From NCBI GenBank assembly GCA_964430885.1, contig CAYSHM010000006.1, forward strand, positions 75,803-139,802: a stretch of 64,000 nt of DNA. Reading direction: 5' to 3'. This DNA comes from an uncultured archaeon. Lineage in GTDB: Archaea > Thermoplasmatota > Penumbrarchaeia > JASLWR01. Below the pieces are notes generated by a model. The model had not been told where the DNA came from. It saw only the letters and a list, made by a program, of their open reading frames with translations, and searched no databases. Positions 16,767 to 36,757 of this stretch are shown one piece after another; within the stretch, counting starts at the first letter, position 1; each line of letters opens with the position of its first letter. Made by a program: the position numbers and the translations under genes.

Positions 16767-17009
16767 AACGATCAAGTTCGACCAGCTAAGTGCCGACCCA
16801 CAAAGCAAAAACTCAATCATCCCTCGTTTGGAAACAATGGGTTTGATTTGTAAGTTAATTATTAATAGGAGTTTGAGGAATAAGGGTCGGAAATGGAATC
16901 CTTTGGCATTTGGGTATAATAGTGTATATTGAATGACATGGGAACTCCGATTTAATCAATAACTATAGTTCACACTGATGAATATTAATGGATAAGGAGA
17001 GGTGTAAGG

Positions 17010-17288: not shown

Positions 17289-17293
17289 TAATT

Positions 17294-17509
17294 ATGCATA
17301 TACAAAAACAGACCAAGTATTTGGATACACCTAACAGCAAATACTTAAAGGTGAAATGTCACGACTGCATGAACGAGCAGGTAATATTCAACAAGGCCAG
17401 TAATGTTGTGAAATGTTTGGTTTGCGGGGCTACTTTAGCAGAACCCACCGGCGGAATGGCCAAGGTAAAGAGTAAGATATTGGCCGTTGTTGACAGAAAG
17501 TACAGATGA
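17294..17509 (+). CDS. rps27e: Ribosomal protein S27e (eS27)
   Basis: '[36 protein letters not shown]' matches the S27e C4 zinc-finger pattern. Alternative ATG at 17252. Confidence 0.8.
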
Positions 17510-18297
17510 AGGTAGAGATTTATATGGCAAACCGATTCGAATGGCCTTTGGAAGATGAACTGGTTGTATGTACCGTAAAAAGGGTTCTTGATTATGGTGC
17601 TTTTGTTACCCTGGATGAATATCAGGATAAAGAAGGCTTCATCCATATTGCTGAGATCGCTTCCGGTTGGGTCAAATATATCGGCAACCATATTAGAGAA
17701 AAGGCCAAGGTTGTTACCAAGGTCCTTCGTGTGGATCCTCGAAGGGAGCATATAGATCTCTCCTTGAAGAGGGTCAATGACCACCAGAAGAGGGCAAAGA
17801 TACAGGAGTGGAGAAGAAATACCAAGATGCTGAAGCTCTTCGAACTTCTCTCAAAAAGAATAGAGAAAGAGCTGAAATTGTGTTATAGAGAGTTTGGTTT
17901 CTCACTGATGGAGAAATACGGCTCCCTTTATAACTCCTTTGAAGCGGTATCTATCAATAACAATGTCCTTGAAGAGGACGGTTTCCAGGGAGACTGGGTG
18001 GAGCATTTTGTTGATATTGCACGGACCAATATAACTCCCCCCTATGTATCCATTTCAGAGAAAATATACCTATTCTCTCCTGCTCCCAATGGAGTGGAAC
18101 ATGTTAAGGAAGCTATAGGTTCGGTGATCAAAAATTCCGAGGAAAACGTCAAGATCACCTATGTAGGGGCGCCGGAATACCGGATCTCCGTCATCGCCCG
18201 CGATTATAAAAATGCGGAATCAGTAATGGCTAATACTGCAGGAGATGTTATTGATAAGATAACATCAACGGGCGGTTATGGTTCATTCGATAGATAA
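17506..18297 (+). CDS. eif2a: Translation initiation factor 2 alpha subunit (aIF2-alpha)
   Basis: S1 domain '[41 protein letters not shown]'. ATG overlaps the S27e stop. Confidence 0.8.
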
Positions 18298-18323
18298 ATA
18301 ATTTTTTCAAGAGGGCATGGATC

Positions 18324-18503
18324 ATGAAGCATTTTTTATTCAAGTGTTCAGAATGTTCAGTCTATACTATGGACCAACAATGCCCAGAATGCGGTAATAC
18401 AGCTTGGGCTGTGGAACCCCCTCGTTTTTCACCACAGGACCGTTGGGGGAAATACCGCAGAAAGTTATTACTTAACTTGGAGAATGATGAGAATGATGGA
18501 TAG
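18324..18503 (+). CDS. nop10: H/ACA ribonucleoprotein component Nop10 (59 aa; absent from ORF track)
   Basis: Hand translation from ATG 18324: MKHFLFKCSECSVYTMDQQCPECGNTAWAVEPPRFSPQDRWGKYRRKLLLNLENDENDG, stop TAG 18501-18503. Zinc ribbon plus 'PPRFSP' motif; canonical position after aIF2-alpha. Confidence 0.7.
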   Translation: MKHFLFKCSECSVYTMDQQCPECGNTAWAVEPPRFSPQDRWGKYRRKLLLNLENDENDG

Positions 18504-19426: not shown

Positions 19427-22400
19427 ATGGGAGTTCATCATATGGCCGCAACTTTTTCAGGTAAGAAAGGTATCTATTCAGTTATTTTAATAATTATTAT
19501 TATTTTATGTGGTTACTCAGGTTTTATCCCATTGGTGTTGAGGAATGAAGACCAATTTATATGTTCCTTATTGCCGTCCGATCCAAATTCTGAGGACAAT
19601 GATGAGATTATAGATGGCAATATTGATAATGATATAATTACAAGAGGGAAAGGTTGGTTCTACCAAATGATCGACTTTCGGGACGAATCGGGTTTGGGGC
19701 AATCACCTTCTGCCAGATTTGACTCCATAGGGAATCTTCATGTAGGGTACGAGGATAGAGAAGCGGACCGCTTGAAATATACTTACTGGAACGGAAACCA
19801 ATGGGATATCCAAGTAATTGCCGGTTCAGATCCGGGGGATCCCATTGATACGGAAGGGCGTCCTTATATGGTGCTTGATGATATTGATAGTCCCCATTTT
19901 GCCTATATTGATGATGATGAACACCTCAAGCACACTTACTGGGACAACGACCATTGGGCCCATGAAATTGTGGATGGCATTTCCCAGTGCAAGGGTTATA
20001 CTCCTCTGGTAATAGATGGGAACGGCAGTATTCATGTGACGTATTATGATTCTATTATTACTGCCTTGAAGTATGCCTATTTCGATGGTAATTTCTGGAA
20101 TGCCACCGTTGTGGATTCATTCGGAGACGTGGGTGAGTATTGTTCAATAGCCGTGGATTCGGAGAACAATCCCCATATTAGCTATTTTAATGATTCGGCG
20201 GACGATCTTAAATATGCAACCTTTAACGGAATGTCCTGGAGCAACCAAACAGTTGATTCCACGGGTTTTGTAGGCCAATACACATCTATAGCAATCGGGA
20301 CTGATCAGCACCCTAGGATCAGTTACAGAGACGTGACCAACCGATTTCTGAAATTTGCGTTCTTCTTCAACGGGAACTGGACCATCGAATCCGCAGATTC
20401 AACACCCCAGGATGTTGGAAAGGACTGCAGTCTTTTTCTGGATTCATCGGATAATCCTCATATTTCATATTTTGATGATTCCTGGAATGACCTGAGGTAT
20501 GTTCATCATGACGGTGAGCAGTGGAACATGGGGATAATAGATTCCGATTCAACAGCTGGAGACTACACCTGTATTGCTCTAAATGGGACTGACAGTCCTC
20601 ACATTTTTTATCATAGGGAAAATGACGGCGAGCATACCTTGGAATATGCAAATCTGATAGAGGAGTACAGCAACCCTTTCCTAATTTCAGATGAGACTGC
20701 CGAGTATGGTACTACAGGTGAAAAGCTCCAGTTCAATATAAGCGCGGGCGATAATTTTGCAGTTAAGAATGTTAAGGTGAATTGGGAACACAACGGAACC
20801 AGCGAGAACCTTTCCCTTGTTGAGGGTAATTCATTTTGGATTGGAGAGGCCGAAATAGAGCACGATTTGGCTACTCTAAACTATACTATCTACATAGAGG
20901 ATTACTGTCAGAACCATTACAATAGCCATCAGTTCAGAGTAAATATCAGTGATGATGACCTTCCGGTGATTATTGGTGATTCAAGTCCGAATTTCGGAAC
21001 TACTGGTGATATTTTTAGATTTAATATAACTGCCTATGATAATATTGGACTGGATACTATAAAAGTCAACTGGACCCATGGGAATCTGGCTGGAAATACT
21101 ACATTGACCGAATCCATAGATGGCTATTGGAATTCCAGTATAATACTTGATCATAACCTTAGCGATATGAACTATACTATCTTCATAAATGATACATCAA
21201 ACAACAGCATAACAGTGCCGGGGGTACCAGTGAATATTTCAGATGATGATCTTCCGGTTCTCATAGAAGACATGTCCCCTCTATCAGGAACAACAGGTGA
21301 TGATTTCCTTATACAATTGTCACTGGATGATAATATAGGTGTTGAAGGTGCATTCGTGAACTGGAGTCACGGCGGTTTAGATGATAATATCTCCTTGGTG
21401 CTGCAAAGGGGTCGATGGACCAGGACAATACAGCTGGACCATAACCTTTCTGATTTGCAGTACTATGTATTCTTCAATGATACCTCTGGTAACAGCAATG
21501 CAACCCCGGTTCTCAATATAGAAGTTCACGACAATGACCTTCCCTATCTGGATGACATAAGCCCTGACAATGGCACCACAGGGGATCCGTTCGAGTTCAG
21601 AATCACTACTGGAGACAATATAGATGTCGGAAGTGTTAATATATCCTGGGAACATGGGAATCTGAGCGGTAATGCTCCTCTTGCTGAGGAAGGCCCCAAC
21701 CTTTGGATGGGCACCATCTTTCTCGACCATTCCATTGAACATCTATCCTATTATGTGCAGGTAAATGATACCGCAGGCAACAGTGTCAATCATCAGGGGC
21801 CAATGGTCCATGTAATGGATAACGATGATCCTTTTATTCAGAATGATAATTCCAGCGGCACAGGATCCACCGGTGATAATTACACGTTTTTGATACAGCC
21901 TTTGGATGATGTTTGGGTCAGCAGTGTGCTTGTCGACTGGAATCACGGTGAGGCCGATGGCAGGCTAGAACTGATCAAGAACAATACTGGATTCTGGGAG
22001 GGCATTGTTTCTCTAGTTGATGATATTGGTGATCTGGAATATACAGTACAGATAAACGATAGTTCGGGAAATTATCACATTAGTTCCAAGCGTTTCATTA
22101 TGATATTGGATAATGATATTCCTATGATTAGGGAGAACAACTGTCCGAATTTCGGGACCACTGGCGATGAATATATTTTCAGTATGGAACCATGGGATAA
22201 TATCGAGGTTGATAGTGTCAATGTGAGTTTTAATCATGGTCCGATGGATGAAAACATTGAGCTAGAAAAAGGACTTGGTGATTCCTGGTCTGCTAAGATT
22301 TACATGGCTCATTCTCTATCGAATCTCGAATATTCCTTTCAGGTAAATGATACTTCAGGTAATTTTTATCGAAATGAATTGACAAATGTCCAAGTATTCG

Positions 22401-24034
22401 ATAACGATGACCCCCAATTCATATCCAATCTTACCCTTGGGACCTCAACAACCGGGGGAAATATCATATTCAAAATCAATGCCAAGGACAATATTGGGAT
22501 ACAGAGCGTGAAAGTGCAGTACAGTTATGGTGAGCCCTGGGCCGAATTCACCTACTTGATTCCATATGTAGGCAATTTCACCTATGAAAAGACCATTGTG
22601 ACATATGATACCATTGATCCCCTGTTTTACCGATTCATTATTGAAGATAGCAATGGTAACTCTTTCACCACTGATTATTCACCCATACTGATATCGGATA
22701 ATGACGATCCGGTTATTATACATGATGATACCCCCCGGCGGGTATCTCTGCTGGAATTCCTGAATTTCCAAGTCAATACGGTAGATAATGTGGGGCTGGA
22801 CAATGTCAAGGTGTATTTTGGATACGGAGTAAATGTAAACCTTACAATTCTGGAACTGACTTCAAACGAGCAGATGGAAGAAAATTATACCGGTATTCTA
22901 GTCCTGGACATCAATGCAACAGCTGATCTTCTATATTTTATCCGGGCAGTTGATACAAGCGGCAACCAAGCAACTACAAAAATGAAAATGATCAATATAT
23001 CTGAACTCCATGAGGATTTTGACGGCGATGGAATAATAGATTTTAGGGATGAAGATGATGACAACGATACCATCCCGGATGACTGGGAGATCAATTTCGG
23101 TCTTAACCCTTACAACCGATCTGACAGTTCAAATGACATGGAAGGAGACGGACTTATGAACCTCTATGAATACCAGAATGGTTTGAATCCGACCTCCAAC
23201 GATACAGATAATGACGGAATGCCTGACGGTTGGGAGGTCATAAACAATTTGGATCCCTTGAAGAACGATGCGAATCTCGATCCAGATCGGGATAATCTGC
23301 CGAATACTGACGAATACCGAATTGGAAGTGATCCCCGAAATCATGATTCAGACGGTGATTACTGGACAGATGGTGATGAGGTTACAAGAGGCTCTGATCC
23401 CCTTGATATCAATTCTTTCCCTTCGGATCCGGGAGATGATGGAATACTCTTTAATCTGTTTGGAATTGGTATAGATATAAAGGATATATTGGGTATTACC
23501 GCGTCCCTGCTTTCCTTCCTTCTAGCATATCTACTGTTAACCAGAAGAAGACGAAAGTATCAGCATTATGTTTTGAAAATTGCCGAGATCAATGATCTTG
23601 ATAAGCTGGTTGAATATTATCGGGTGGAAATATTAACTGCCATCAAGAATGAGCAGATCACACCTCATCATGCAGTAATAATCAAAGAGGATTATACCAA
23701 ACGCAGGGAAGAATTACAGGATATGGATAATTCCGGGGACGGATCGAGAGAGGAAATCGCACATTCTTCAATTTCAAAAGAAGATGATGAACAGGATTCC
23801 GAAAGTGATGAAGCAGGTTTTTCAGCCCCAGTCCTTGACGAAGATCAACACCCGGAACAGAATGACCATGATGTCGATGAAATTCTAACCGATTCAGAAA
23901 AATCAGCCGATGATTTTGAGACCAGTCCTGATGATGATGAAGATGATGTTGATTTTGAGATCGATACTTCCTTTGATGAAGACGACAATGTAATAACTCC
24001 GGCTGATCTTTTTGAGGATAACTTCGATATGTAG
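19427..24034 (+). CDS. Giant (1535 aa) surface protein: N-terminal anchor, beta-propeller-like repeats, about ten 100-aa repeat modules, thrombospondin-type-3-like Asp-rich region, C-terminal TM helix and acidic tail
   Basis: Recurrent 'DNDLP...SP.FGTTGD.F.F.I...DNIG...V.VNW.HG...N..L...............LDH.LS...Y.....DTSGN' modules; 'DGDGIIDFRDEDDDNDTIPDDWE...DTDNDGMPDGWE' region; TM 'ITASLLSFLLAYLLL' followed by RRRRK. Confidence 0.6.
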   Translation: MGVHHMAATFSGKKGIYSVILIIIIILCGYSGFIPLVLRNEDQFICSLLPSDPNSEDNDEIIDGNIDNDIITRGKGWFYQMIDFRDESGLGQSPSARFDSIGNLHVGYEDREADRLKYTYWNGNQWDIQVIAGSDPGDPIDTEGRPYMVLDDIDSPHFAYIDDDEHLKHTYWDNDHWAHEIVDGISQCKGYTPLVIDGNGSIHVTYYDSIITALKYAYFDGNFWNATVVDSFGDVGEYCSIAVDSENNPHISYFNDSADDLKYATFNGMSWSNQTVDSTGFVGQYTSIAIGTDQHPRISYRDVTNRFLKFAFFFNGNWTIESADSTPQDVGKDCSLFLDSSDNPHISYFDDSWNDLRYVHHDGEQWNMGIIDSDSTAGDYTCIALNGTDSPHIFYHRENDGEHTLEYANLIEEYSNPFLISDETAEYGTTGEKLQFNISAGDNFAVKNVKVNWEHNGTSENLSLVEGNSFWIGEAEIEHDLATLNYTIYIEDYCQNHYNSHQFRVNISDDDLPVIIGDSSPNFGTTGDIFRFNITAYDNIGLDTIKVNWTHGNLAGNTTLTESIDGYWNSSIILDHNLSDMNYTIFINDTSNNSITVPGVPVNISDDDLPVLIEDMSPLSGTTGDDFLIQLSLDDNIGVEGAFVNWSHGGLDDNISLVLQRGRWTRTIQLDHNLSDLQYYVFFNDTSGNSNATPVLNIEVHDNDLPYLDDISPDNGTTGDPFEFRITTGDNIDVGSVNISWEHGNLSGNAPLAEEGPNLWMGTIFLDHSIEHLSYYVQVNDTAGNSVNHQGPMVHVMDNDDPFIQNDNSSGTGSTGDNYTFLIQPLDDVWVSSVLVDWNHGEADGRLELIKNNTGFWEGIVSLVDDIGDLEYTVQINDSSGNYHISSKRFIMILDNDIPMIRENNCPNFGTTGDEYIFSMEPWDNIEVDSVNVSFNHGPMDENIELEKGLGDSWSAKIYMAHSLSNLEYSFQVNDTSGNFYRNELTNVQVFDNDDPQFISNLTLGTSTTGGNIIFKINAKDNIGIQSVKVQYSYGEPWAEFTYLIPYVGNFTYEKTIVTYDTIDPLFYRFIIEDSNGNSFTTDYSPILISDNDDPVIIHDDTPRRVSLLEFLNFQVNTVDNVGLDNVKVYFGYGVNVNLTILELTSNEQMEENYTGILVLDINATADLLYFIRAVDTSGNQATTKMKMINISELHEDFDGDGIIDFRDEDDDNDTIPDDWEINFGLNPYNRSDSSNDMEGDGLMNLYEYQNGLNPTSNDTDNDGMPDGWEVINNLDPLKNDANLDPDRDNLPNTDEYRIGSDPRNHDSDGDYWTDGDEVTRGSDPLDINSFPSDPGDDGILFNLFGIGIDIKDILGITASLLSFLLAYLLLTRRRRKYQHYVLKIAEINDLDKLVEYYRVEILTAIKNEQITPHHAVIIKEDYTKRREELQDMDNSGDGSREEIAHSSISKEDDEQDSESDEAGFSAPVLDEDQHPEQNDHDVDEILTDSEKSADDFETSPDDDEDDVDFEIDTSFDEDDNVITPADLFEDNFDM

Positions 24035-25083: not shown

Positions 25084-26034
25084 TCATTTTTTCTTCTTGC
25101 CCTTCTTATTTTCCTCGCCTAAATTGAGTTTGCCAGTATTTAGAAGTATTTTGAGGTCTTCAAGTCCCATCTTTTCGCTGTTATCAAGCTTCTTCTTGGC
25201 CACTGCTATCTTTTCTCTCTTGGAAAGCCTGATCCTGTCCCCCTTGAACCTGCTTTTCTTTCTCTTCAGATAAGAATGATCCTTTCGAATACGGTCCTTG
25301 GCCATTTTCACTGCCTGGGTAGTGAGGTTCAGATCATTCACCTCTCTTTTGAGATCCTCAATCTTTTTCTTGATGTCGTCAATGTTCTTGCTGACATTGT
25401 TCTTCTCCTTGAACTTGGCAATGGATTCAAAATGTGCATCCTGTGAGGTTTTTTTAATCTCATTTATTTCTTGAAGAATCGTATTCTTTTTCTTCTCGTT
25501 TTCCTTGAGCTGGTGATAGTTTTCTGTGATTTTCTGATGTTTCTCATCCGCTATTGCGGATATTTGTGTTCTCTTTCTTAGATCTATGAACATCGAATAA
25601 ATGCGTATCTCTTCCTTGAGGCTAATCTCTCTGGTCAATAAGGTCTTGAACTGCTCAATTAGTGAATTCTCAAGATAACCCAGGGTTCCTCTGGCTTCTT
25701 TGTTGAATTCGTTTCTTTCGCCCTTGAGTTCCTTTATATTTTCCGCATGTTTATCCATGTTCTTCTGGTATTTCTTGAAATCGTTCCACATTGGTTTGAG
25801 TTTTGTCTGAAGTGCATCCCTCTTTTTCTGGAGCTCCTTCCCTTCCTTTATCAGTTTTTTAACCAGTGCGATCTGTTCCCCTTTCTTCTTGTAGAGTTCA
25901 TCTATCTCATTTCTTTTCCGGTCTATTAACGTTATTGTATCACTAAGCTTTTTTTCCTTGGATTGGGAGAGCTTCTCCTTGCTTTGTATAGCTTTATCAA
26001 GTTCTTCCTTTGTCTCGAATATTTCCTGCGGCAT
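25084..26034 (-). CDS. Lys/Glu-rich coiled-coil protein
   Basis: Highly charged heptad-like sequence; probable start at internal Met (MPQEIF...) immediately after the upstream gene's stop. Confidence 0.45.
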   Translation of the reverse strand: MPQEIFETKEELDKAIQSKEKLSQSKEKKLSDTITLIDRKRNEIDELYKKKGEQIALVKKLIKEGKELQKKRDALQTKLKPMWNDFKKYQKNMDKHAENIKELKGERNEFNKEARGTLGYLENSLIEQFKTLLTREISLKEEIRIYSMFIDLRKRTQISAIADEKHQKITENYHQLKENEKKKNTILQEINEIKKTSQDAHFESIAKFKEKNNVSKNIDDIKKKIEDLKREVNDLNLTTQAVKMAKDRIRKDHSYLKRKKSRFKGDRIRLSKREKIAVAKKKLDNSEKMGLEDLKILLNTGKLNLGEENKKGKKKK

Positions 26035-26035
26035 A

Positions 26036-27193
26036 TTACTCCCCCCTATCTTCTGCTTTTTCGGGTGTTCCGTTTCCCTTTTTATCTTCCCCAGTTTCCT
26101 TCGGATCATTTTTTTCTTCAGGTTCTTCGATTAATTCGAACTCAATAATACTGCTCTGTTCTTCAAGTTTTTTGTCATCTGTTTCCTTTTGATCCTTATC
26201 CGTTTTCTTTTCATCTTCCTTGGTCTTGATCACCTTTTCCGGACGATCGGCGGACACTTCATTTATTTTTTCTTTGTTCTCAATAGAGGCACCCTGTGGT
26301 TCGGAAGTTTCTTGTTTTTCCTTAATTTCCTTTTCCACACCCGCTACATTTTCCGCCATTTTTCTCTTGGTCTCACCTTTAACCACAATAGGTTTGTCAT
26401 TTTTTGTTTTTATTTCCTTCTCTTTATAAACCGGTATTTCCCTGTTTGTCCAATATTCCAACGCTTCATCGTGCTTTATTATCCATCTCTTCATCCTTTC
26501 CAGTTCCCAGTTGTTTGTATTGAATTCCTTTTTAATTTTAACAAGTTCTTCATGATGGACGTTTCCTTCCTTGACAAGTTCAAGCATGGTACCATGAACC
26601 TTTTCCTTATCCACCATTGTTTGGAGGATCTCCTTTTCAAGCCGGGATATTTCATCCTCCCTTTCCTTATCCTTTTCAATACGTCTGTTGATCTTGTTGA
26701 TCTGGGCATAACACAGTTTTGCCTCTTCCATTAACCGCCTTTCGGTTTCAAGGTCGATACCTTCAGTCTCCAGTTTCCAATCTACATCTCTCAGTTGGGA
26801 TTGGTACATTCTCATTCGTTTGCTGTCATCGGATGATAATTTGGATTCATTTATCAGGGTCAGATAACGGTCTTTGTTTTCCTTGATTTTCCTGAAAAGA
26901 GAGGTACGTATTTCCTTCTTCTCCTGAACCATTTTATTATAATTATCCCTCTCTTTTTGGATAGTCTTGATCTTATCCTCAAGTCCGGGCAGGGTCTTTT
27001 CCAGTTCCAGGATTTTATCCTTGTAAGTACTAGCAAAAGTATCATGTTTCTGAATAACTAAGGATATCAACCGCTCCTCAGTTATGGTCTTCAAGTCTTC
27101 ATTCTGGATGATTCCCTCTGCATTCTGTATTATTTCCTTCAAAATAATCCCTCTAAAATTAAAAATATATTGGTTGTAAAAAGATTTCAACAA
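26036..27193 (-). CDS. Coiled-coil protein with Lys/Glu/Asp-rich C-terminal tail
   Basis: Long ORF, TTG start, coiled-coil-like composition; apparently co-transcribed with 25084..26034. Confidence 0.45.
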   Translation of the reverse strand: MLKSFYNQYIFNFRGIILKEIIQNAEGIIQNEDLKTITEERLISLVIQKHDTFASTYKDKILELEKTLPGLEDKIKTIQKERDNYNKMVQEKKEIRTSLFRKIKENKDRYLTLINESKLSSDDSKRMRMYQSQLRDVDWKLETEGIDLETERRLMEEAKLCYAQINKINRRIEKDKEREDEISRLEKEILQTMVDKEKVHGTMLELVKEGNVHHEELVKIKKEFNTNNWELERMKRWIIKHDEALEYWTNREIPVYKEKEIKTKNDKPIVVKGETKRKMAENVAGVEKEIKEKQETSEPQGASIENKEKINEVSADRPEKVIKTKEDEKKTDKDQKETDDKKLEEQSSIIEFELIEEPEEKNDPKETGEDKKGNGTPEKAEDRGE

Positions 27194-27333
27194 AAACCAT
27201 TATTGCAACATTTTATGGATAATAAAAGAAAGAAGGGGAGCCACGTTCCCCTTCCATGCATTTTTATTTTTCAATTACCGGATTGTTAGTTTGTTGTTTT
27301 TCAAAAAATGTTTGTTTCAAGTTTCATCCTTGA

Positions 27334-27897
27334 TTATCTAAGACGTCCTCTGGCACCGCAGTTAGAGCAGGTGATTTCAATGGGTCTCTCATCAGAGGTA
27401 ACTGTGATATTACTTCCGCACTTGGGACACTTGATCTTTGTTGCCTCCTTCTTCTCCTCTTCCTCTTCCTCTTCCTCTTCTTCTTCGCCCCATTGTTCTT
27501 CAGTTTCCTCTTCTTCCTCTTCCTCTTCCTCTTCTTCTACCTCTTCTTCCTCCTCCACTTCCTCTTCCTCTTCCACTTCCTCTTCCACTTTTTCTTCTAC
27601 TGGTTTGGATCCCCTGGAACTAAGATAATCGGAAAGTGCTGCACGAACTACATCACCAACGGAAACTTTTTCCTCACTCATTACTTTATTAACGCCCATA
27701 ACTATCTTCTCAGGTATAACAACATGGATCTCCTCTGCGCCGTCCAATTCCTCTTCCAGATTTTCCAGAGCTCCAGCCATTGTGCTGATCCTCATGTCGC
27801 CATTTGCCATTTTGTCCTGAATTCGGGCTACTATTTCTTCCTTGGTGAGCCATTCTCCTGATACCTGTATTGTACCTTCATCAAGATTGATTTTCAT
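27334..27897 (-). CDS. Small acidic protein with poly-Glu linker and C-terminal C4 zinc ribbon
   Basis: 'KCPKCGSN...CSNCG' zinc ribbon; roughly 60-residue Glu/Val-rich linker. Confidence 0.5.
   Translation of the reverse strand: MKINLDEGTIQVSGEWLTKEEIVARIQDKMANGDMRISTMAGALENLEEELDGAEEIHVVIPEKIVMGVNKVMSEEKVSVGDVVRAALSDYLSSRGSKPVEEKVEEEVEEEEEVEEEEEVEEEEEEEEEEETEEQWGEEEEEEEEEEEKKEATKIKCPKCGSNITVTSDERPIEITCSNCGARGRLR
27440..27600. repeat. CTT/CTC-rich simple-sequence tract (GAA/GAG on coding strand) encoding poly-Glu
   Basis: Visible run 'cttcttctcctcttcctcttcctcttcctcttc...' spanning about 160 bp. Confidence 0.8.
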
Positions 27898-28166: not shown

Positions 28167-31100
28167 CTATTGGCGAGGCGGACGGGGAGGTAAATTATCA
28201 CTGCTGTTTTCAGTAGGCTCTTCTTCATTGGCCAGATCGCCCGTGAGCTCCTCCTCTTCGGATGACGGCCCATTCTCTTCTCCGTCGGTCCCTTCAGCAG
28301 TCCCTTCCTGGTTATCCATACTGCTCCTGTTATCATCAAATTCATCCTCTGCTTCGAATTCATCCTCTGCTTCGAATTCATCCTCTTGAAGCACTTCTTC
28401 CTCCAACATCCTATCCTCGGTTTTCCCCTTGTCCTCCTTTTTGGTTTTCATTATGTAAATGGCCATGGCGGTCCCTACTCCTAGAATGAGAATCACTAAA
28501 GCTATCAATATAATCCAGAGAGTAGTATTTCCCGAACCGGGATCCTTGTCCGAATCGTCATCGTCATCATCTGATGCAGAACCGAAATATGATGTTGGAA
28601 AGGAATCAATATTGTGCTTCCATGTCTTTGTTTTTCCGTCATACTCGGCAGTTATCTCGGTTCCATCTGGTATGCCGGTATATCCAATTAGGCTGAATGT
28701 AACCTTTCCATCCTTACCAGTGGTACCAGCATAGTCCCGATTTCCCAAACTGAACGTAACGATGACACCCTCAAGCGGTTTGCTTCCATCCATGAAAGGT
28801 CCCATTTTAACATCGGCGCCTGATATATCAAGATACATGTCTCCCAGATCCACATCTGCACCTTCTATCTTGAAGGATATTGTTTTGTCATCATAACCAT
28901 CAGCAGATAGGACAAGATCATATGAACCGTTGGGTAGTGATGCAGTGAACACACCATTGGTATCAAGGGTGATATTGATTCTATCCTGACCTTTTGTTAT
29001 ATAACCCTGGGCATTGACTGGGGCAACCTTTCCGCCAACGGAATACTTGGTCAAGGCGGTTGTAGTGAATTGGAATGTGAGGTCACTGTCCAATTCTTGA
29101 CCGTCAATGTCTTTTACACCTTGGAGGTCTATCTGATAGATAGTATCCTCTTCGAAACCATCTTTTGGTGTGAAGGTGAAATTGTATTTATCGATCCATG
29201 TGCTTCCTTGGATGAAGGGAGTGATAATGACGGTGTCACCCAGAGTGAAAGAAGTGTAATCCATCATTTTAGTGAATTCGACTATTATGGTAGAATTGAG
29301 CGGTATGTCGACACTTCCGTCCAATGGGTAAGTTGTAACAACCATTGGCAGCTCTAATTCCACAACAGATAGAGCGTATTCAGAATCAATGGTATAGGTT
29401 GAGGAACCGTCATCCACAAGTACCTGAAGGTAGTATCTCCCGATCTCCAGATCCGATGTGTTCCACGAATAACTTTCCTCGAATGGATCAAGATATGACA
29501 GTAAGAACAAAGTTGTGTTATCTCTCTCTTCATAATAATAAAGGGTAAGGTTTGTATCAGAAATTGGACCCGGATCTCCGCCTATATTCAAATGGACAAT
29601 GAATTTCTCCTTTCCTTCATATATGGTAAAATTTTCATCTTTTAATGAATCGAATTGGAAGGTGAATGGCACCGGCGGAGCAGTTACCTCTCCGGGACTC
29701 ACAGCTCCTATCTTCCAGTCATCCTTTGAATTGGTGTCGAGATAATTCACTCCCGCTCCTCCGGTCAATCTGCTGAGGCTCTGTCCCTGGGAAATGTTGG
29801 TCACATTGATACATGACGAAGTTAGATTGTTATCCCAGTCGGCCCCGTCTCTCAGTGAACTGATATCCAATATTTCATGGGCGGTCAAGGTTCCCTCCGA
29901 CTGCCAGGCTACAGCATCATGAACCAAATCTTCGGTATCTGCCAATATCACTTGGTCTCCGCCGGTACTTAGCACTCCATTGCTTGCGCTTGTATATATG
30001 TCGATTATGCCGTCGCCATTCCCTTCCATGCTGCCGTTTTCGCTCGCCATGGTATCATTGTTAAAGTGTATGAGCAGATATTCATCACTAGCAATGACAG
30101 TTCCATCGAAGAAATGGTCGGTATTCCCATCAATGTCATCTATCCACCATCCTGTTATATCCGCACCATCCCCCAGATTTCCATCATCCACGCAGAAAAT
30201 CTCAACCCAATTATCACCTGTTTCCGGTTTGAACATGACCTCCGTTATAAGCAGGATAGGTTCAGGTGCTGGCTCGGCAATCGTTATTGTAAACAAACTG
30301 CTGAATCTTGGCTGATTTGTTCCATCCTCGGCAGCAATCCTGAACTTAATAACACTTCCCAATGCCTGCCCGGGGATACTTGCACACCAGTTATTATCTC
30401 CTGCTATTTCATCTATCCCCGTTCCATCATCCTTCATAATTATTTCATTTTGGTCAGCATCATTGAGGGTCCAGTTGATCACAGCCCTTGTCACACTCAC
30501 ATCGTCAGTGATCCTTGCTGAGATGTTCAGATCTGTCATTGGGGCAAGTGTATGATTGTCGGGTAAAGGATCAAGAATAATATCAGTTATCAATGGCAGC
30601 TCATCGGCCAGGTCTCTGAAGATTCCGGGTTCGGGAATTTCAAGTATATGCCAGTCGTTTCTGGAGTTTGAGTCTGTTTCTCCTCTGCTCCTGGTTATAC
30701 TGAAACCCGCGGATATATTATCCGAATCCACGCAGGCACCTGTGTTGTTGGCATCCCACTGGCCCTTAGCAACAGTATAATTCAGGTCGTCCTTTTCACC
30801 TGCTGAGAGAGTATCATTATAAGCCCAGCACACAGCGTCCATTAGGAATCCGTCCTGATCAAAAAGTATTACTTGATCCCCCTGATAGCTAAGGCGGGTA
30901 TTGCTCCCTTCAGTATATGTGTCCAGGATATTATCGCTGTTTCCGTCATCTACAGAAATCTCGTCTTCCATATCCGGGGAGTTGTAATGCATTAAGAGGA
31001 TATCGCCTGTGTGAACCAAGGCATTGCCGAATGTTTTATCCCTGCTTCCGTCTTCATCATCAAGACCCCATCCAAGAATGGAATTCCCATTTCCGCTATT

Positions 31101-32378
31101 ACCGTCATCTACAACGTAGAGTTCTACCCAGTCATTTTCTCCCGAGTCTGCGTTGAAATAAACTTCTGTTATATTGATGGATGGCTTGGTGCCAGGTAGA
31201 TAGTAGTAGGTGAAATTCTCCGTTGTTACTGAGTTGCCCTGATCGTCCACTGCAGTCATGTTGTATTGGATAGGTACACCTATACCCATCTGTCCTGCAT
31301 CATAATCAATGGTATATGAATAATTGTCACCGGCAGAAAAGCTCATCAGGTTTACAGAAGGGTTTCCATTATTGATCACTACTGTTATGTTCACATGGTC
31401 TATGCTTCCGTCATCGGTGACATTTACCTCTACATCCACATCTGTACCTGGCTCAGGATTGCCAACGGGGTCCTGGCTTATAGAGTTGAATGTTGGAATG
31501 GATTGTGTAGGCTGGCTGATAACGGGATCTGCAGGGTTGTTCGATTCCCAGCTTGTGGTGAGGTTCTCGGTTGTTTCATCATGTCCGGTGATTCCGTTTC
31601 CATTGTTGCCTACCTCCTCAGGTTCCGCTGGAATATTTACCCTTTTATATGATTTTCCAAGATCATGTACAGATGTGTTTATCCGGATAGATGTGTTCCC
31701 ATCAGCATTATAGGCCGAGGGATTACCATCGCCATCGGTATCGCTGTCTATACTCACTCCGGTCTTGTCAATTTTATAACCTTCATCATCACCCCACCAT
31801 ACAATGTCTACATCGCTTACAAGATCGCTAATCCCGTCCCAGTAGAACATAACCACGGTCTCGTGATCATTTGTCAGACCGGCCGTTCCTCCTATGTCAA
31901 CATCAATCATATTAGGTACCCCGCTAGAATCAATCATCTCATAATTGGGATTCTTTCCGAATTCTGCTAGGAAATCACTGCCGTCGAAAGCTACCACCAT
32001 ATAATCCCCGACTCCAATGCTGGTTCCTTGGGGGAACCGGCATATGAAATCGTAACCGCCCGCGTTTGCTGAATTATCTACAATTCCATAGTAATCCACG
32101 ATGTCAGCCAGATAGTAATTGGATAGGTCAATTGGGCCGCCTGTGGGATTATGGATCTCAATGAACTCCTTGACAGTTGGAGTGACGCATACCTCGGAAA
32201 GTACCAGATGGTCTGCATTTATTCTCGATCCTCCGCCTTCAGCCTGGACTCCGTATGGCCCCAATAGGGACAAGAACGGAGCACTCAGAAGGGTACAGAA
32301 TAATAATAATACAGGGAGTTTCCGAAATCTATTCTTCCTGTTATTTTTTGAATTATTTCTTTTTAACATATTGAACAC
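28167..32378 (-). CDS. Giant (1403 aa) surface protein with multiple lamin-tail-domain (LTD)-like modules, Ig-like regions, C-terminal TM anchor and acidic tail
   Basis: Signal peptide; LTD-like 'LVLSEVCVTP..EFIEIHNPTGGPIDLSNYYLAD', 'INITEVYFNADSGENDWVELYVVDDG', 'LLITEVMFKPETGDNWVEIFCVDDG'; TM 'LWIILIALVILILGVGTAMAIYIM'; tail ends PPRPPRQ. Confidence 0.65.
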   Translation of the reverse strand: MFNMLKRNNSKNNRKNRFRKLPVLLLFCTLLSAPFLSLLGPYGVQAEGGGSRINADHLVLSEVCVTPTVKEFIEIHNPTGGPIDLSNYYLADIVDYYGIVDNSANAGGYDFICRFPQGTSIGVGDYMVVAFDGSDFLAEFGKNPNYEMIDSSGVPNMIDVDIGGTAGLTNDHETVVMFYWDGISDLVSDVDIVWWGDDEGYKIDKTGVSIDSDTDGDGNPSAYNADGNTSIRINTSVHDLGKSYKRVNIPAEPEEVGNNGNGITGHDETTENLTTSWESNNPADPVISQPTQSIPTFNSISQDPVGNPEPGTDVDVEVNVTDDGSIDHVNITVVINNGNPSVNLMSFSAGDNYSYTIDYDAGQMGIGVPIQYNMTAVDDQGNSVTTENFTYYYLPGTKPSINITEVYFNADSGENDWVELYVVDDGNSGNGNSILGWGLDDEDGSRDKTFGNALVHTGDILLMHYNSPDMEDEISVDDGNSDNILDTYTEGSNTRLSYQGDQVILFDQDGFLMDAVCWAYNDTLSAGEKDDLNYTVAKGQWDANNTGACVDSDNISAGFSITRSRGETDSNSRNDWHILEIPEPGIFRDLADELPLITDIILDPLPDNHTLAPMTDLNISARITDDVSVTRAVINWTLNDADQNEIIMKDDGTGIDEIAGDNNWCASIPGQALGSVIKFRIAAEDGTNQPRFSSLFTITIAEPAPEPILLITEVMFKPETGDNWVEIFCVDDGNLGDGADITGWWIDDIDGNTDHFFDGTVIASDEYLLIHFNNDTMASENGSMEGNGDGIIDIYTSASNGVLSTGGDQVILADTEDLVHDAVAWQSEGTLTAHEILDISSLRDGADWDNNLTSSCINVTNISQGQSLSRLTGGAGVNYLDTNSKDDWKIGAVSPGEVTAPPVPFTFQFDSLKDENFTIYEGKEKFIVHLNIGGDPGPISDTNLTLYYYEERDNTTLFLLSYLDPFEESYSWNTSDLEIGRYYLQVLVDDGSSTYTIDSEYALSVVELELPMVVTTYPLDGSVDIPLNSTIIVEFTKMMDYTSFTLGDTVIITPFIQGSTWIDKYNFTFTPKDGFEEDTIYQIDLQGVKDIDGQELDSDLTFQFTTTALTKYSVGGKVAPVNAQGYITKGQDRINITLDTNGVFTASLPNGSYDLVLSADGYDDKTISFKIEGADVDLGDMYLDISGADVKMGPFMDGSKPLEGVIVTFSLGNRDYAGTTGKDGKVTFSLIGYTGIPDGTEITAEYDGKTKTWKHNIDSFPTSYFGSASDDDDDDSDKDPGSGNTTLWIILIALVILILGVGTAMAIYIMKTKKEDKGKTEDRMLEEEVLQEDEFEAEDEFEAEDEFDDNRSSMDNQEGTAEGTDGEENGPSSEEEELTGDLANEEEPTENSSDNLPPRPPRQ
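28341..28388. repeat. 18-bp direct tandem repeat (about 2.7 copies) inside the tail-coding region of the 28167..32378 gene
   Basis: 'ttcatcctctgcttcgaa' repeated in tandem; encodes EDEFEA repeats on the minus strand. Confidence 0.75.
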
Positions 32379-32545
32379 CTGATAGAAATTACTAGAATCA
32401 CATTTAAATTGTTTTGGTGGGTAAATAACAGCTTTATGAAAAAACCTTTCCTAAAAAATGGGTATATATAGATAAAAAGTTTGAAAAGATCCGAGCAGCG
32501 CAATCAGTGTATAGTGATAAATAGATAAATATGGCAATTCAGCGA

Positions 32546-35500
32546 TTAAGCCGGAATCAGAGTAGGCATGGAGGGTATTGCTTCTTCGTCATTTACATCA
32601 TCGATTTTCTCACCTTCCGTTTTACCGCCCTTTTTTCCCTCATCCTCTTCATCTGCCGGCTTCACATCCTCTCCTGATTCCTCACCGTCCATACCTTCTT
32701 CACCATCCTTTTCTGACCCGCTATCTCCTGCCCTTTCTTCGGTGACTGCTTCCCTGTTTTCATCCCCTCCTTTCTTATCTTCAGCCTCTTCTTCTCCTTG
32801 ATCACCTATCTCTACTTTTTCAGGTTCTGCTTCATCCTCCTTTTTGGACTTGACAGCATAGATTACCATTGCCAAAGCAACAATAATGATCAGCGCCATC
32901 AGAATGATCAAAATGGTCCAGAGGGTCTTGTTACCCTCTTTGTTTCCCGATGCTTCCCGATTTTCAAATGCATCATAGGGATTTTCATTCCCCCAGGTCC
33001 ATTCCACCTTATCCTCTTCATATCTGCCGTATATTTTCACACCGTCGGGCAAGCTTTCCATTTCAAGCCAGAAGACAGCTTTCCCATCATTACCGGAGGT
33101 ATTTTCATAATAGGTGTCATTCAGTGTGAACCATACCCTTACGCCCTTTAGGGATTCACCATCCATTAGGAAAGGACCGATCTCTACTTTGAATTTCTTG
33201 GGCGGCTTAACAGTTTTCTGAAGAACGATATCGTCTAATATCATATCCAGTCCGTTTACAAAAAAGGTATCCACATGTGTTGTGTATCCCGGAGAACTGA
33301 TCACTATATCGTGGGACCCGTTCACGAGACGTATCTCGAAAGTATCCTTGTCAACATCTATTTCCTCTCCGTCTATCTCAACTGTGGAAGTTTCGGGAGA
33401 AATGCTGCCTTTCACATTGAATGTCGGCTGCACCTCGGTTTTGAACGTGAAGTGGTATTCATCTAAAAGCAACCGTCCCTTATTGCTCTCGACATCCTTG
33501 ATAGTAATACTGTAAAGGGTATCATAATCCAGGTTATTACTTGGGTCGAATATCACCTTAACATCATCTTCCAGAGAGAAGCTCCCTTGGACAGTGGGGG
33601 TTATGATGAAAGTAGTCCCGAGGATAAATGAATCCCGATCTATAGCCCTGTCAAACTCAACGGCAATATCCACGTTCACCGGTAATCTGTTTCCTCCATC
33701 AGCAGGCCAGCTGCTGACAATCTCAGGGGGATAGACTGGAACATGAACAATGACCAGGGGATGATCTGTAATCTTCTCTATCTGGCAATAGCTGGAATAG
33801 TTCACTTTTCCAATTAGGAAATAACTGCCGTTCACCACCTCGGCGGTATTCCAAAGGTAATTCTGCTCCTCGGGGATCGCGTCAGCGATCTTAACAGGGG
33901 TTGAATTACCCTTTCGGTAGAACAGTTCAAATGATAGTTGATCATTTACCCTTGGGGCTTTCCATTCCCAATTAATACGGTAGGACTTATCCGCGTTATC
34001 GCTTGAATTGGTAAGTACTGTGAAGTTGAAATCAGGGGGCGGGGAATGTCCGCCCATTCCCGGGGAAGGTATGTTGTCCAGATACCAGTCGTCCTTTGTG
34101 TCGGTATCTATGAATAAATTCTGCGAATGATGATATCTTCTAGCGACCGATATACCGTCATCAATACCGGTAAGATTGAAACATCCTGTGATTACTGAGG
34201 AGTTCCAGGCATTTTCATGTTTAAGCTCTTCCATATCCGTTATTTCACCAGATTTTAATGTCCCATCCCTCTGCCAAGCTATGGCATCCATTATGATATC
34301 ATCCTCATTGTATAAGACAAGCTGGTCCCCGGTAGTCGCCATTATTCCGCTGGATGCGTCAGTATAAAGATCGATTATTCCATCATCGTTCCCACCAGTA
34401 GCGTTTCCTTCATCCACACTCACATCATCATCGAAATGGATCAGTAAATAATCGCCGGTTCTCACCAGAGTTGCGCCAAATTCATACCTCGTACTTTCCA
34501 TATCCGTCAATTCCCAATCCAAAAGGATATTGCCGTCTCCGCTGTTTGCATCATTGGCACAGTAGAGCTCCACCCAATCCTCTCCTGCTTCGGGTTCAAG
34601 CATGATTTCAGTAATAATTATCTCCGGGTATTGGAAGAATAGGTAGTTGTAATCATTGGAAAAGGTGATCTGACCGCCGATATCCCTGGCCATCAATTTG
34701 AAGATGATAGATGTTCCCAATTCCTTTCCAGGAATGACGCATGTCCAGATATTATCATCCGCGGATATGTCCGCACCAGCGCCATTGTTCTCAAGGAGAA
34801 TGTTAGGTTGATTAATACCTTCAAGAGACCAAATCAGTTCAGCGCTATCCAGTTCCAGTTCATCGGTAATATTTACCTCTAGAGTGATATTTGTATTGGG
34901 TTTCAATATTCCCATCTCCGCTTCAGGAGTCAATATCACCTCACCGATAAAAGGCGCCAGGTCGGATTTATTGAAAGGCGTACCGGGATTGGGTCTATCC
35001 ATTATGTACCAATCATTTTTGGTATTCGAATCCTGCTCATCCACGCTCCTGGAAATACTTTTACCGTCTTCCACCGATTCCGAATCAACACAATCCTGAT
35101 AATTTTTTGAATCCCAATGTCCCAGATCGAAAGTTACATTCAGGTCTTCCTCTTCGCTTCCTTCCAGCTCACCGGGCCCCGCCCAGCAAACCGCATCTAA
35201 GACCATTCCATCTGGATCGTACAACAGAAGCTGATCCTCAGAGTCGTCCAGCCTGGTGTTGGTAGCTTCAGAGTAAGTATCAAGTATCATATCATTGTTT
35301 CCGTCAGTGGCGTTCCACTCGTCCATTGAATCACTGTTAAAATGAACCAGAACACTTTCACCTGTTCTAACCAGTATATTCCCGAAAACCTTATCCATTT
35401 CACCCTCGAGGTCATTGGTTCCCCAATTCATTAAGGTATTGCCAAGTCCCAAGTTGTTATCATCCAAACATAGAAGCTCTACCCAGCAGTCTGTAAGTTT

Positions 35501-36757
35501 CCATCCGCTGGCCTCATTATCAGGTTTGAACATTACTTCATGTATAAGCATATCGGGGTAAACAGCAGGTAGATAATAGTAAACCATATCTCCGCTCCGG
35601 GTCACATTGCCATGGTCATCTTCTGCTGATATATTATATTTCACTGAAGTTGCCCGTTCCATGATCGCTTCATTCCATACCAGGACATATCCGTAGGTGG
35701 CATTCTCTATGAATATCATTGGATATGATTGATAAGGTTTTCCGTCAATGGATATGTTGATCTCCACGCCGGTGACACTTCCTTCATCAATAACGGTGGC
35801 CAGAAATGTCACATTTTCGCCCAGACCCGGATTATCTCCAACAGGTGTTTTTTTCAGGGATGTCATGATAGGGGGCCCCCCCACGGGACTGGTTACAGTC
35901 GGATTTGCCGTGATGTTTCTCCAGAAAGAAATGGTGAGGTTCTCAGTTGTCTCATCATGTCCAGTCTTTCCATTGCCGCCGGCAGGTATCTCTTCAGCCT
36001 CCTCCATGGGGGCTATTCTAGTGAAGGAATTATCCTCTGGATGGGCCGATGTGTGAATGGGAGGAAAGGTTGAAGCATCGTTGGCATAGGTACTTTCGTC
36101 AAGATCCCCGTCAAGGTCAGAATCGATGCTTACTCCGCTCTTGTCAACCTTGTAATCCTCATCATTCCCCCACCAAACTATATCTACATCCCTTACAAGG
36201 TCCATGACACCGTCCCAATAAAATAGTACAAGGGTTTCACCCGAATCGGTTAGGGATGCACTTCCGCCTATAAATCCCCGTGTTTCATTCATTCTAGGGC
36301 TGAAACCTTCCTGAAGTATATAATTCGGCCTTATGCTGTAGGCATCTATGAAGCCCACCTCGTCGAAGGCGATTATCTGATGCTCCCAAGGGGATATGGT
36401 ACTATCCGTGGGAAATGACGCTATGAAATCCGTGGCCAATTGCTGGTTGAATCCCAGGAGCAAGTTGGTGATGTTGTAATAATCGGTAATGTCCGCGATA
36501 TAATAATTGTCTAAGGAAATTGTATTATCAGTGGGATTCATTATCTCTATGAATTCCAAATTCCCGGGTTTCACCTTTACTTCGTTGATCACCAGGTGGT
36601 CCATCAAGGCCCTTGCATCGTTCTTTGCTTCTCCGTTCCTCTCTGAAAAAGCGACATTGGACGCGGAAAAACAATTCACCAGCAGAAATAATGTCATCAG
36701 CATTATTGCACTTCTTGTTGGGCGAATACCTATATTTTTTACAGATGGACTTTTCAT
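32546..36757 (-). CDS. Giant (1403 aa) LTD-repeat surface protein, tandem paralog of 28167..32378
   Basis: Same length and architecture: signal peptide, LTD-like 'LVINEVKVKPGNLEFIEIMNPTDNTISLDNYYIAD', 'MLIHEVMFKPDNEASGW', 'IIITEIMLEPEAGEDWVELYC'; TM 'LWTILIILMALIIIVALAMVIYAV'; Glu/Asp/Gly-rich tail. Confidence 0.65.
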   Translation of the reverse strand: MKSPSVKNIGIRPTRSAIMLMTLFLLVNCFSASNVAFSERNGEAKNDARALMDHLVINEVKVKPGNLEFIEIMNPTDNTISLDNYYIADITDYYNITNLLLGFNQQLATDFIASFPTDSTISPWEHQIIAFDEVGFIDAYSIRPNYILQEGFSPRMNETRGFIGGSASLTDSGETLVLFYWDGVMDLVRDVDIVWWGNDEDYKVDKSGVSIDSDLDGDLDESTYANDASTFPPIHTSAHPEDNSFTRIAPMEEAEEIPAGGNGKTGHDETTENLTISFWRNITANPTVTSPVGGPPIMTSLKKTPVGDNPGLGENVTFLATVIDEGSVTGVEINISIDGKPYQSYPMIFIENATYGYVLVWNEAIMERATSVKYNISAEDDHGNVTRSGDMVYYYLPAVYPDMLIHEVMFKPDNEASGWKLTDCWVELLCLDDNNLGLGNTLMNWGTNDLEGEMDKVFGNILVRTGESVLVHFNSDSMDEWNATDGNNDMILDTYSEATNTRLDDSEDQLLLYDPDGMVLDAVCWAGPGELEGSEEEDLNVTFDLGHWDSKNYQDCVDSESVEDGKSISRSVDEQDSNTKNDWYIMDRPNPGTPFNKSDLAPFIGEVILTPEAEMGILKPNTNITLEVNITDELELDSAELIWSLEGINQPNILLENNGAGADISADDNIWTCVIPGKELGTSIIFKLMARDIGGQITFSNDYNYLFFQYPEIIITEIMLEPEAGEDWVELYCANDANSGDGNILLDWELTDMESTRYEFGATLVRTGDYLLIHFDDDVSVDEGNATGGNDDGIIDLYTDASSGIMATTGDQLVLYNEDDIIMDAIAWQRDGTLKSGEITDMEELKHENAWNSSVITGCFNLTGIDDGISVARRYHHSQNLFIDTDTKDDWYLDNIPSPGMGGHSPPPDFNFTVLTNSSDNADKSYRINWEWKAPRVNDQLSFELFYRKGNSTPVKIADAIPEEQNYLWNTAEVVNGSYFLIGKVNYSSYCQIEKITDHPLVIVHVPVYPPEIVSSWPADGGNRLPVNVDIAVEFDRAIDRDSFILGTTFIITPTVQGSFSLEDDVKVIFDPSNNLDYDTLYSITIKDVESNKGRLLLDEYHFTFKTEVQPTFNVKGSISPETSTVEIDGEEIDVDKDTFEIRLVNGSHDIVISSPGYTTHVDTFFVNGLDMILDDIVLQKTVKPPKKFKVEIGPFLMDGESLKGVRVWFTLNDTYYENTSGNDGKAVFWLEMESLPDGVKIYGRYEEDKVEWTWGNENPYDAFENREASGNKEGNKTLWTILIILMALIIIVALAMVIYAVKSKKEDEAEPEKVEIGDQGEEEAEDKKGGDENREAVTEERAGDSGSEKDGEEGMDGEESGEDVKPADEEDEGKKGGKTEGEKIDDVNDEEAIPSMPTLIPA

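Follow-up and report, generated by a model that had tools for sequence, protein, structure and literature searches.

A tandem pair of predicted lamin-tail-domain surface proteins in a marine Thermoplasmatota lineage

Do two adjacent genes for large, similarly built surface proteins in an uncultured archaeon belong to a family that selection drives apart, or do they encode envelope components that have been retained side by side since an early duplication? The question is raised by a 64,000-nucleotide stretch of contig CAYSHM010000006.1 (positions 75,803 to 139,802 of the forward strand; assembly GCA_964430885.1), hereafter the window, which carries on its minus strand two such genes, each encoding a protein of about 1400 residues with lamin tail domains (LTD, PF00932). 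An earlier note on this locus, made from the sequence alone, took the pair to be the product of an old tandem duplication that has diverged under diversifying pressure, as adhesins or phage/host-interaction proteins might. The comparisons described here support the old duplication and turn the second claim around: as judged from orthologous sequences, the pair is under purifying selection, strongest on its N-terminal head module, and is not a diversifying family. The reading of the locus thereby shifts from diversifying adhesins to a fixed, purifying-selected pair of paralogues. We lean towards the view that the two proteins are old, stably kept paralogous cell-surface glycoproteins, stalked and held by a C-terminal transmembrane (TM) anchor in type-I orientation, which act as cation- or ligand-binding proteins of the envelope.

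The minus-strand open reading frames 28167..32378 and 32546..36757 are adjacent and each comprise 1403 codons, and this identical length had been counted among the shared traits of the two genes. The equality is an artefact of choosing the longest reading frame. The upstream gene starts at an ATG with AGGAG 9 nt 5' of it, and its product is identical to a public protein (P0001). In the downstream gene AGGTG lies 8 nt before an ATG at codon 4, and the GTG at 32378 that gives rise to the longer version falls within this ribosome-binding site; public gene calls likewise give 1400 residues. Orthologous pairs are unequal by 31–139 residues (upstream/downstream 1439/1300, 1439/1301, 1451/1378, 1444/1344 and 1451/1420). 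The shared architecture that had been described otherwise stands, with a signal peptide, LTDs, Ig-like regions, a single C-terminal TM helix and an acidic tail in both proteins, and so does their divergence: they align from end to end (BLASTP, about 1397 residues, E = 0) at 37% identity and 55% positives, and the genes are 49% identical at the nucleotide level. This low identity, together with a longest exact shared run of 13 nt, gives no sign of recent gene conversion between the two copies, and no third copy was found within the window. AT-rich sequence with TATA-like boxes and oligo-T runs precedes each gene, which makes separate transcription likely, so that each probably has its own promoter.

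Full-length relatives of the pair are few. A word-indexed search of 5.8 billion proteins returned only 11, at 39–46% identity, from marine metagenomes or from metagenome-assembled genomes labelled "Candidatus Thermoplasmatota archaeon", and when 1.84 billion cluster representatives were searched exhaustively with HMMER, a single 1200-residue sequence serving as query, the full-length architecture was recovered only in P0001, P0003, P0006 and one fragment. The proteins form an ordinary, lineage-specific multi-domain LTD/Ig surface family whose relatives NCBI already labels as LTD-containing, an example being the orthologue MDP6155401.1, named 'lamin tail domain-containing protein [Candidatus Thermoplasmatota archaeon]'. 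The tandem pair, its gene order unchanged, recurs across six genomes or populations, namely the window and the public loci L001 (equivalent to L002 and L003; ETNP2_MAG_1, GCA_030740765.1), L004 (equivalent to L005 and L006; GCA_964342815.1), L008, L087 (GCA_964614925.1) and L088. Copy number does not vary and is fixed at two in every related genome sampled. The six marine Thermoplasmatota populations that bear the pair probably belong to GTDB order JASLWR01, whose name is the accession prefix of ETNP2_MAG_1, itself a carrier of the orthologous pair.

In a neighbour-joining tree of 16 sequences the upstream copies fall together, with bootstrap values of 99–100% for subclades and 65% for all upstream copies, and eight downstream copies are grouped at 100%, with the downstream copy of the window at the base of the group. 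Clades that follow gene position indicate that the duplication is older than the divergence of these lineages and that both copies have been kept everywhere. The two clades have different fixed residues at just one alignment position (D171, in upstream-copy numbering, against N in the downstream copies), and identity between clades is only slightly below identity within them, so that functional divergence of the two copies is not evident from sequence.

The module order of the downstream protein corresponds to that of the upstream one (Table 1). Both proteins lie far above the gathering cutoff of the Pfam LTD family (34.3 bits), with 79.4 bits over three stretches and 72.3 bits over two; the first LTD (LTD1) of the upstream copy falls under the per-stretch threshold, yet is 48% identical to its counterpart in the downstream copy. 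Big_5 (PF13205, cutoff 23.6 bits) is matched with 48.8 and 50.4 bits, the CarboxypepD_reg match is weak, and the precomputed annotation of the public copies lists the Ig-like PF26342 (TP_1001_2nd) twice. The literal signature L.I.EV.....EFIE..NP, given in the earlier note for several modules, occurs nowhere; a relaxed form is found once per protein, in LTD1 at residue 55, and LTD2 and LTD3, which are the products of a duplication inside the protein (37% identical over 199 residues, E = 3e-41), carry another variant, ITE(V/I)M...W(V)EL.C.DD.N.

AlphaFold2 models of residues 45–905 (mean pLDDT 84.2) and 895–1300 (mean pLDDT 81.1) of the upstream copy both give an all-beta, "beads on a string" ectodomain with the TM helix at its end, and the pair has the Ig-like beta-sandwich fold of the lamin tail. 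Multi-domain models submitted to Foldseek matched generic Ig, Fn3, Big_5 and macroglobulin arrays, the Big_5-like domains of LdtMt2, and fragments of the calcium-binding adhesins SiiE and MpIBP. Sequence searches of the PDB with the family profile or the head profile found no relatives, and NCBIfam, PHROGs and PADLOC searches of the pair region gave only spurious matches to tail or coiled-coil stretches. One Ig-like beta-sandwich domain is about 4 nm long; from such general dimensions, nine or ten of them in fully extended form would span 35–40 nm.

Signal peptide, TM helix, sequons and net charge all speak for a location at the cell surface with an extracellular ectodomain. Each protein is hydrophobic in two places only: the C-terminal TM helix, and an N-terminal signal sequence whose n-region is positively charged and in whose c-region AFS or VQA is followed by E. 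Anchoring by PGF-CTERM and archaeosortase was looked for in both proteins: there is no PGF motif, and the TM helix is not terminal, an acidic tail of about 100 residues following it. With 25 N-x-S/T sequons in one ectodomain and 29 in the other, roughly double the expectation, the pair is predicted to be N-glycosylated. The ectodomains consist to 17–18% of Asp and Glu and to 4.5–6% of Lys and Arg, and their net charge per 100 residues comes to about -12 to -13; in the tails of both proteins Asp and Glu reach 36–38%. Cytoplasmic proteins of the window are roughly neutral, and its other secreted proteins are similarly acidic and rich in sequons. Two of the latter match the LTD pair in both respects and are themselves alternative candidates for envelope or S-layer proteins: one of 1535 residues (19427..24034, plus strand) with a weak TSP3 repeat match and a net charge of -13.7 per 100 residues, and one of 791 residues (64..2439, plus strand) with four PKD domains and -8.6 per 100 residues.

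Of all modules the head, which combines LTD1 with an extension of about 100 residues, is the most conserved, and the stalk and tail are the least: identity is 55–62% in the head, 41–57% in the units of Ig domain and LTD2 or LTD3, 32–47% in the stalk and 15–25% in the tail. The head of the upstream copy contains the motifs DVDIVWWG and GNGxTGHDETTENL and a DSDxDGD loop. Residues invariant across archaea and bacteria comprise W-D-G, D-V-D, K, Y, R, E, G-N-G and G-H-(D)-E-T-x-E; among them R203, E212, H223, D224, E225 and E228 in head numbering fall within residues 247–272 of the full protein. The loop, as DSDxDGD or DGPDxD, is kept in both domains of life and resembles DxDxDG calcium sites. The head is extremely acidic wherever it occurs: its net charge per 250 residues is -24 to -33 in archaea and averages -29 in 76 bacterial copies.

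Among 185,579 species genomes of GTDB, 79 loci were listed, of which 76 are bacterial and match by the head only, at 26–45% identity; three archaeal genomes have full-length relatives. The bacterial carriers include Calditrichia, Marinimicrobia/Neomarinimicrobiota, Gemmatimonadota, Myxococcota, Ignavibacteria, Cytophagia and KSB1. In the HMMER search of the cluster representatives the head module alone accounted for 132 matches at E <= 1e-30 and 923 at E <= 1e-10, and hundreds of secreted bacterial proteins share the head at 35–45% identity. The bacterial head usually sits directly after the signal peptide, either by itself in proteins of about 285 residues or one to three times in longer chains, the largest of 2116 residues, and its partners in 50 bacterial proteins were FlgD_ig (14/50), the OB-fold domain tRNA_anti-codon (13/50), the type IX secretion system (T9SS) tail Por_Secre_tail (13/50), CHRD (5/50), CBM_56 (5/50) and nucleases (3/50). 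In bacteria the head is widespread at the N-terminus of secreted and T9SS-sorted proteins and spans many phyla, against a single narrow lineage among archaea; this skew suggests that the archaea probably obtained it from bacteria. Calditrichia encode proteins of 1578–2116 residues with two or three heads per chain (L010 137..6484; L014 9941..16123; L012 1557..6290), and stand-alone head proteins of about 285 residues are found at L019, L050, L051, L054, L066 and L080.

The window pair resembles the known secreted LTD proteins in its profile scores well above threshold and in having an N-terminal LTD right after the signal peptide. It differs from them in possessing three LTDs of two subtypes, the 250-residue head and an internally duplicated form of 200 residues, in its TM anchor in place of a T9SS tail or lipobox, in its fixed tandem arrangement, and in a full-length architecture confined to three or four representative clusters of the 1.84 billion.

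The ratio of non-synonymous to synonymous substitution rates (dN/dS, omega) is uninformative for the two paralogues, because at their level of identity synonymous sites are saturated, and orthologues were used instead, with NG86 estimates for L001 versus L004 and a comparison of the close strains L088 and L089. Between L001 and L004 omega is 0.13 for the upstream LTD gene (dN 0.19) and 0.19 for the downstream one (dN 0.17). The corresponding values are 0.049 and 0.043 for two genes that flank the pair, encoding a 538-residue RPA-like protein and a 313-residue protein (dN about 0.035 in each), 0.016 for a Zn-ribbon gene (dN 0.014) and 0.24 for the first of two DUF7121 genes (dN 0.29). Single domains of the pair range from 0.06 to 0.40. 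This range excludes LTD2 and LTD3 in the upstream protein, for which saturation of dS leaves omega undefined, and the signal peptides, whose two segments give 0.36 and 0.55; windows of 60 codons reach a maximum of 0.42. Between L088 and L089, the upstream copy shows 14 synonymous and 4 non-synonymous changes over its N-terminal 856 codons (omega 0.08), the stalk has an omega of 0.27, and the segment of TM helix and tail has about 1.1. A conserved distal head with a variable stalk and tail is the reverse of the pattern expected for an adhesin or phage receptor with a variable tip.

The dN of the pair nevertheless exceeds that of its RPA-like housekeeping neighbours by a factor of about five (0.17–0.19 versus 0.035). 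Faster non-synonymous change than in housekeeping genes is usual for surface proteins, and a DUF2341/PKD protein, a helix-turn-helix protein and the first DUF7121 gene are about as divergent at the protein level as the LTD pair. Divergence at four-fold degenerate sites between L001 (10001..18330) and L004 is patchy in both LTD genes, 0.25–0.74 per 150 codons with 0.37–0.49 in the flanks, and the LTD2 region of the upstream copy is saturated at synonymous sites; this patchiness may reflect occasional, mosaic recombination between lineages. Relaxed constraint together with occasional recombination, both frequent in surface proteins, could account for the high dN as well as for the patchy synonymous divergence. 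Within populations there is little variation to score: L001, L002 and L003 differ by 0–3 nt, so that only L088 and L089 gave usable counts, and members of 90%-identity clusters are 99.3–100% identical, save for two C-terminal fragments at 96.4% and 98.5%. The downstream LTD gene (14428..18330) differs between L001 and L002 at 3 nt, all of them amino-acid-changing (P0010 versus P0031), with the upstream gene identical, which is too few to interpret. P0040 (589 residues) was considered as a truncated allele and ruled out, since a run of N at about 5752..5851 of L089 marks an assembly gap inside the upstream LTD gene.

On the reading towards which we lean, each protein would be exported through a Sec-type signal peptide and its ectodomain would form a string of nine or ten beta-sandwich domains, beginning at the membrane-distal end with the LTD head of about 250 residues, its invariant acidic and His motifs and its DxDxDG-like loop. 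Two units of an Ig domain and a 200-residue LTD would connect the head to the stalk (Ig3, Big_5 and two CarboxypepD_reg-like domains), which would hold it tens of nanometres off the membrane, and the disordered acidic tail of about 100 residues would lie in the cytoplasm. The head would bind a cation or a conserved ligand, and the pair would contribute to the envelope a receptor or adhesin on a stalk, possibly in the form of a hetero-oligomer. SiiE and MpIBP offer a parallel, being likewise long acidic strings of beta sandwiches that project a distal binding region, with the DxDxDG-like loop of the archaeal head as a further point of likeness; they differ from the pair in their 50–120 domains as against 10, in their repeat expansion, which the pair lacks, and in relying on type I secretion (T1SS) or outer-membrane retention, whereas the pair is TM-anchored in an archaeal membrane.

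Several observations weigh against this reading. Every one of these features would suit an S-layer protein just as well, and acidity and sequon enrichment, being common to other secreted proteins of the window, mark extracellular location only. The partner domains of the bacterial heads are heterogeneous and point to no single ligand, the gene neighbours of 44 bacterial head genes include no consistent partner, and only one residue is fixed differently between the paralogue clades, which gives little sign in the sequence of non-redundant roles for the two copies.

By analogy with NmSLP of Nitrosopumilus maritimus (Nmar_1547/Nmar_1201) and with csg of Haloferax volcanii, the pair could make up the S-layer of the lineage, as a two-paralogue, membrane-anchored lattice of highly acidic Ig-like glycoproteins; this is the chief alternative, and we regard it as possible, if on the unlikely side. 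The proteins are exported, multi-domain, built of beta sandwiches, acidic with depletion of Lys and Arg, and N-glycosylated as far as the sequons predict; they carry a membrane anchor at the C-terminus, occupy a fixed locus in all related genomes sampled, and evolve faster than their housekeeping neighbours while still under purifying selection. NmSLP also has 10 Ig-like domains, is acidic, bears 17 glycans and has a second paralogue, Nmar_1201 (PMC11153153). Homology is undetectable, however: the family profile, compared with all PDB chains, retrieved nothing relating to csg, NmSLP or SlaA at E <= 1, only spurious matches of TM and tail segments, and the LTD and Big_5 domain types and the TM helix with its 100-residue tail set the pair apart from both systems. 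A cytoplasmic tail of that length is unusual for S-layer proteins, the best-conserved part is a mobile module common to bacteria, which suits ligand binding more than lattice contacts, and the secreted 1535- and 791-residue proteins of the window are equally good candidates for the role.

Much less probable is the view of the earlier note, in which an adhesin or phage/host-interaction family has been kept divergent by positive selection after tandem duplication; at the level of gene and domain it is largely refuted. The fivefold excess of dN, the patchy four-fold-site divergence with its hint of recombination between lineages, and the omega near 1 in the TM-plus-tail segment of close strains could be cited for it, but that last value belongs to a low-complexity cytoplasmic tail and not to the exposed surface. 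Omega is low over the whole genes, in every 60-codon window and in the N-terminal 856 residues, and exceeds 1 in no exposed region. There is no variable tip, the exposed head being the most conserved part; there are always two copies in orthologous positions, with almost no microdiversity in the 90%-identity clusters, and PHROGs and PADLOC show no relation to the pair. We likewise consider it improbable that the pair captures extracellular DNA to feed a sugar-phosphate (deoxyribose) microcompartment encoded 15–25 kb away in the window, in which case the acidic heads would load divalent cations, trap DNA and supply deoxyribose to the DERA/AldDH locus, head and microcompartment both having come from bacteria, a detailed version that we hold to be just as far-fetched. 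What speaks for DNA is the company the bacterial heads keep, OB-fold nucleic-acid-binding domains and, in fewer cases, nucleases, and the occurrence of LTDs in the archaeal extracellular-DNA-metabolism proteins Hvo_1477 and ComA (PMC5118699); moreover, the microcompartment in the window is of the SPU type with DERA and AldDH, and such loci have been linked to DNA scavenging (PMC12747264). The pair shares with ExeM/NucH and Hvo_1477 an N-terminal LTD on an exported protein, and bacterial proteins with the head subtype often have the OB fold typical of ExeM/NucH (PMC5118699). Neither LTD protein, however, contains a nuclease domain (EEP, thermonuclease or endonuclease I) or OB domain according to Pfam and NCBIfam, nor an NCBIfam match to ExeM/NucH, and both have a far longer Ig-like stalk and a TM anchor. 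The head charge of -24 to -33 is unfavourable for a polyanion unless divalent cations bridge, most bacterial head proteins have no DNA-related domain, and in the window other genes separate the pair from the microcompartment locus, which is encoded on the other strand; L001 and L004 have no microcompartment genes within 10 kb of the pair.

For an uncultured archaeal order of marine oxygen-minimum zones, these data describe for the first time the build of a protein pair that is probably a major part of the envelope. Their most useful by-product is the definition of a conserved 250-residue LTD head subtype (GNGxTGHDETxE, DVDxxWWG) that recurs in a wide range of secreted bacterial proteins and for which there is no solved structure; if its ligand, whether a cation, a glycan or DNA, were found, hundreds of proteins in more than 10 phyla could be annotated.

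The Zn-ribbon gene and the two coiled-coil genes that follow it (25084..27897) are found on the downstream side of the pair not only in the window but in all relatives whose flanking sequence reaches far enough (18553..21797 in L001 and 14303..17398 in L008), a synteny that holds even in the window, where that on the upstream side is broken. The unconserved tails of the LTD proteins argue against a specific cytoplasmic partner. A homologue search with the Zn-ribbon protein gave only matches internal to the lineage and was swamped by low-complexity acidic words. Upstream of the pair, relatives encode the 538-residue RPA-like protein, with multiple OB folds and a Zn finger, and its 313-residue partner, which are 70–79% identical among relatives (L001 7259..9820; L008 2535..5114; L087 7203..9761; L089 287..2848). 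The window contains no match to either of them, and their place there is taken by a P-loop protein and an M50 protease. The RPA-like gene and its partner look like housekeeping neighbours and not like part of the system.

Table 1. Coordinates of the LTD gene pair, its modules and other features of the window
Feature	Coordinates	Strand	Description
Upstream paralogue	32546..36757	minus	1403 aa; type-I membrane-anchored LTD surface protein
Head, upstream copy	35873..36625	minus	Residues 45-295; LTD1 + ~100-aa extension
Ig1, upstream copy	35558..35872	minus	Residues 296-400
LTD2, upstream copy	34964..35557	minus	Residues 401-598; 200-aa LTD variant, helical insert, conserved Cys
Ig2, upstream copy	34643..34963	minus	Residues 599-705
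LTD3, upstream copy	34049..34642	minus	Residues 706-903; internal duplicate of LTD2
Stalk, upstream copy	32948..34048	minus	Residues 904-1270: Ig3 904-1008, Big_5 1009-1110, two CarboxypepD_reg-like sandwiches 1111-1270
TM helix and tail, upstream copy	32549..32923	minus	TM residues 1279-1302, then KSKKED, disordered acidic tail to 1403
Intergenic spacer	32379..32545	minus	AT-rich, oligo-T runs, TATA-like boxes
Downstream paralogue	28167..32369	minus	1400 aa from ATG at 32369
Head, downstream copy	31497..32237	minus	Residues 45-291; 48% identical to upstream-copy head
LTD2, downstream copy	30606..31184	minus	Residues 396-588
LTD3, downstream copy	29682..30284	minus	Residues 696-896
Stalk, downstream copy	28566..29681	minus	Residues 897-1268; Ig3, Big_5, two CarboxypepD_reg-like sandwiches
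TM helix and tail, downstream copy	28170..28520	minus	TM residues 1284-1307, then KTKKED, acidic tail
Zn-ribbon protein	27334..27897	minus	187 aa, acidic poly-Glu linker; 61-66% identical to orthologues
K/E-rich coiled-coil protein	26036..27193	minus	Orthologues listed as DUF7121; 34-43% identical
K/E-rich coiled-coil protein	25084..26109	minus	Orthologues listed as DUF7121; 34-43% identical
BMC-domain reading frame	2792..3421	plus	
BMC-P	4239..4532	plus	Part of the microcompartment locus
AldDH	4551..5981	plus	Part of the microcompartment locus
RnfC/Nuo51-like flavoprotein	6029..7390	plus	Part of the microcompartment locus
Tandem-BMC T protein	7387..7944	plus	
BMC-P	8033..8548	plus	Part of the microcompartment locus
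TPI	8555..9469	plus	Part of the microcompartment locus
RpiB	9460..9945	plus	Part of the microcompartment locus
BMC-P	10033..10335	plus	Part of the microcompartment locus
BMC-H	10641..10934	plus	Part of the microcompartment locus
DERA	11266..12705	plus	Part of the microcompartment locus

The contig of the window is archaeal, as it encodes aIF2-alpha, PAC2 and Cbf5, and it includes a complete bacterial microcompartment (BMC) locus (2792..12705, plus strand). A 2025 preprint reports archaeal microcompartments in GTDB order JASLWR01 of the Thermoplasmatota, probably acquired from bacteria, and takes the related loci of Hodarchaeales to be SPU metabolosomes that function in DNA scavenging (PMC12747264). 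The composition of the window locus fits the JASLWR01 microcompartments of that study, and a locus of this kind has therefore already been described. Taken with the naming convention, the loci held in common make it most likely that the window comes from that order. Elsewhere in the window, a gene at 54610..58524 (minus strand) encodes a 1304-residue protein with a seven-bladed WD40 propeller (E = 1.7e-57), the remainder of which is unannotated.

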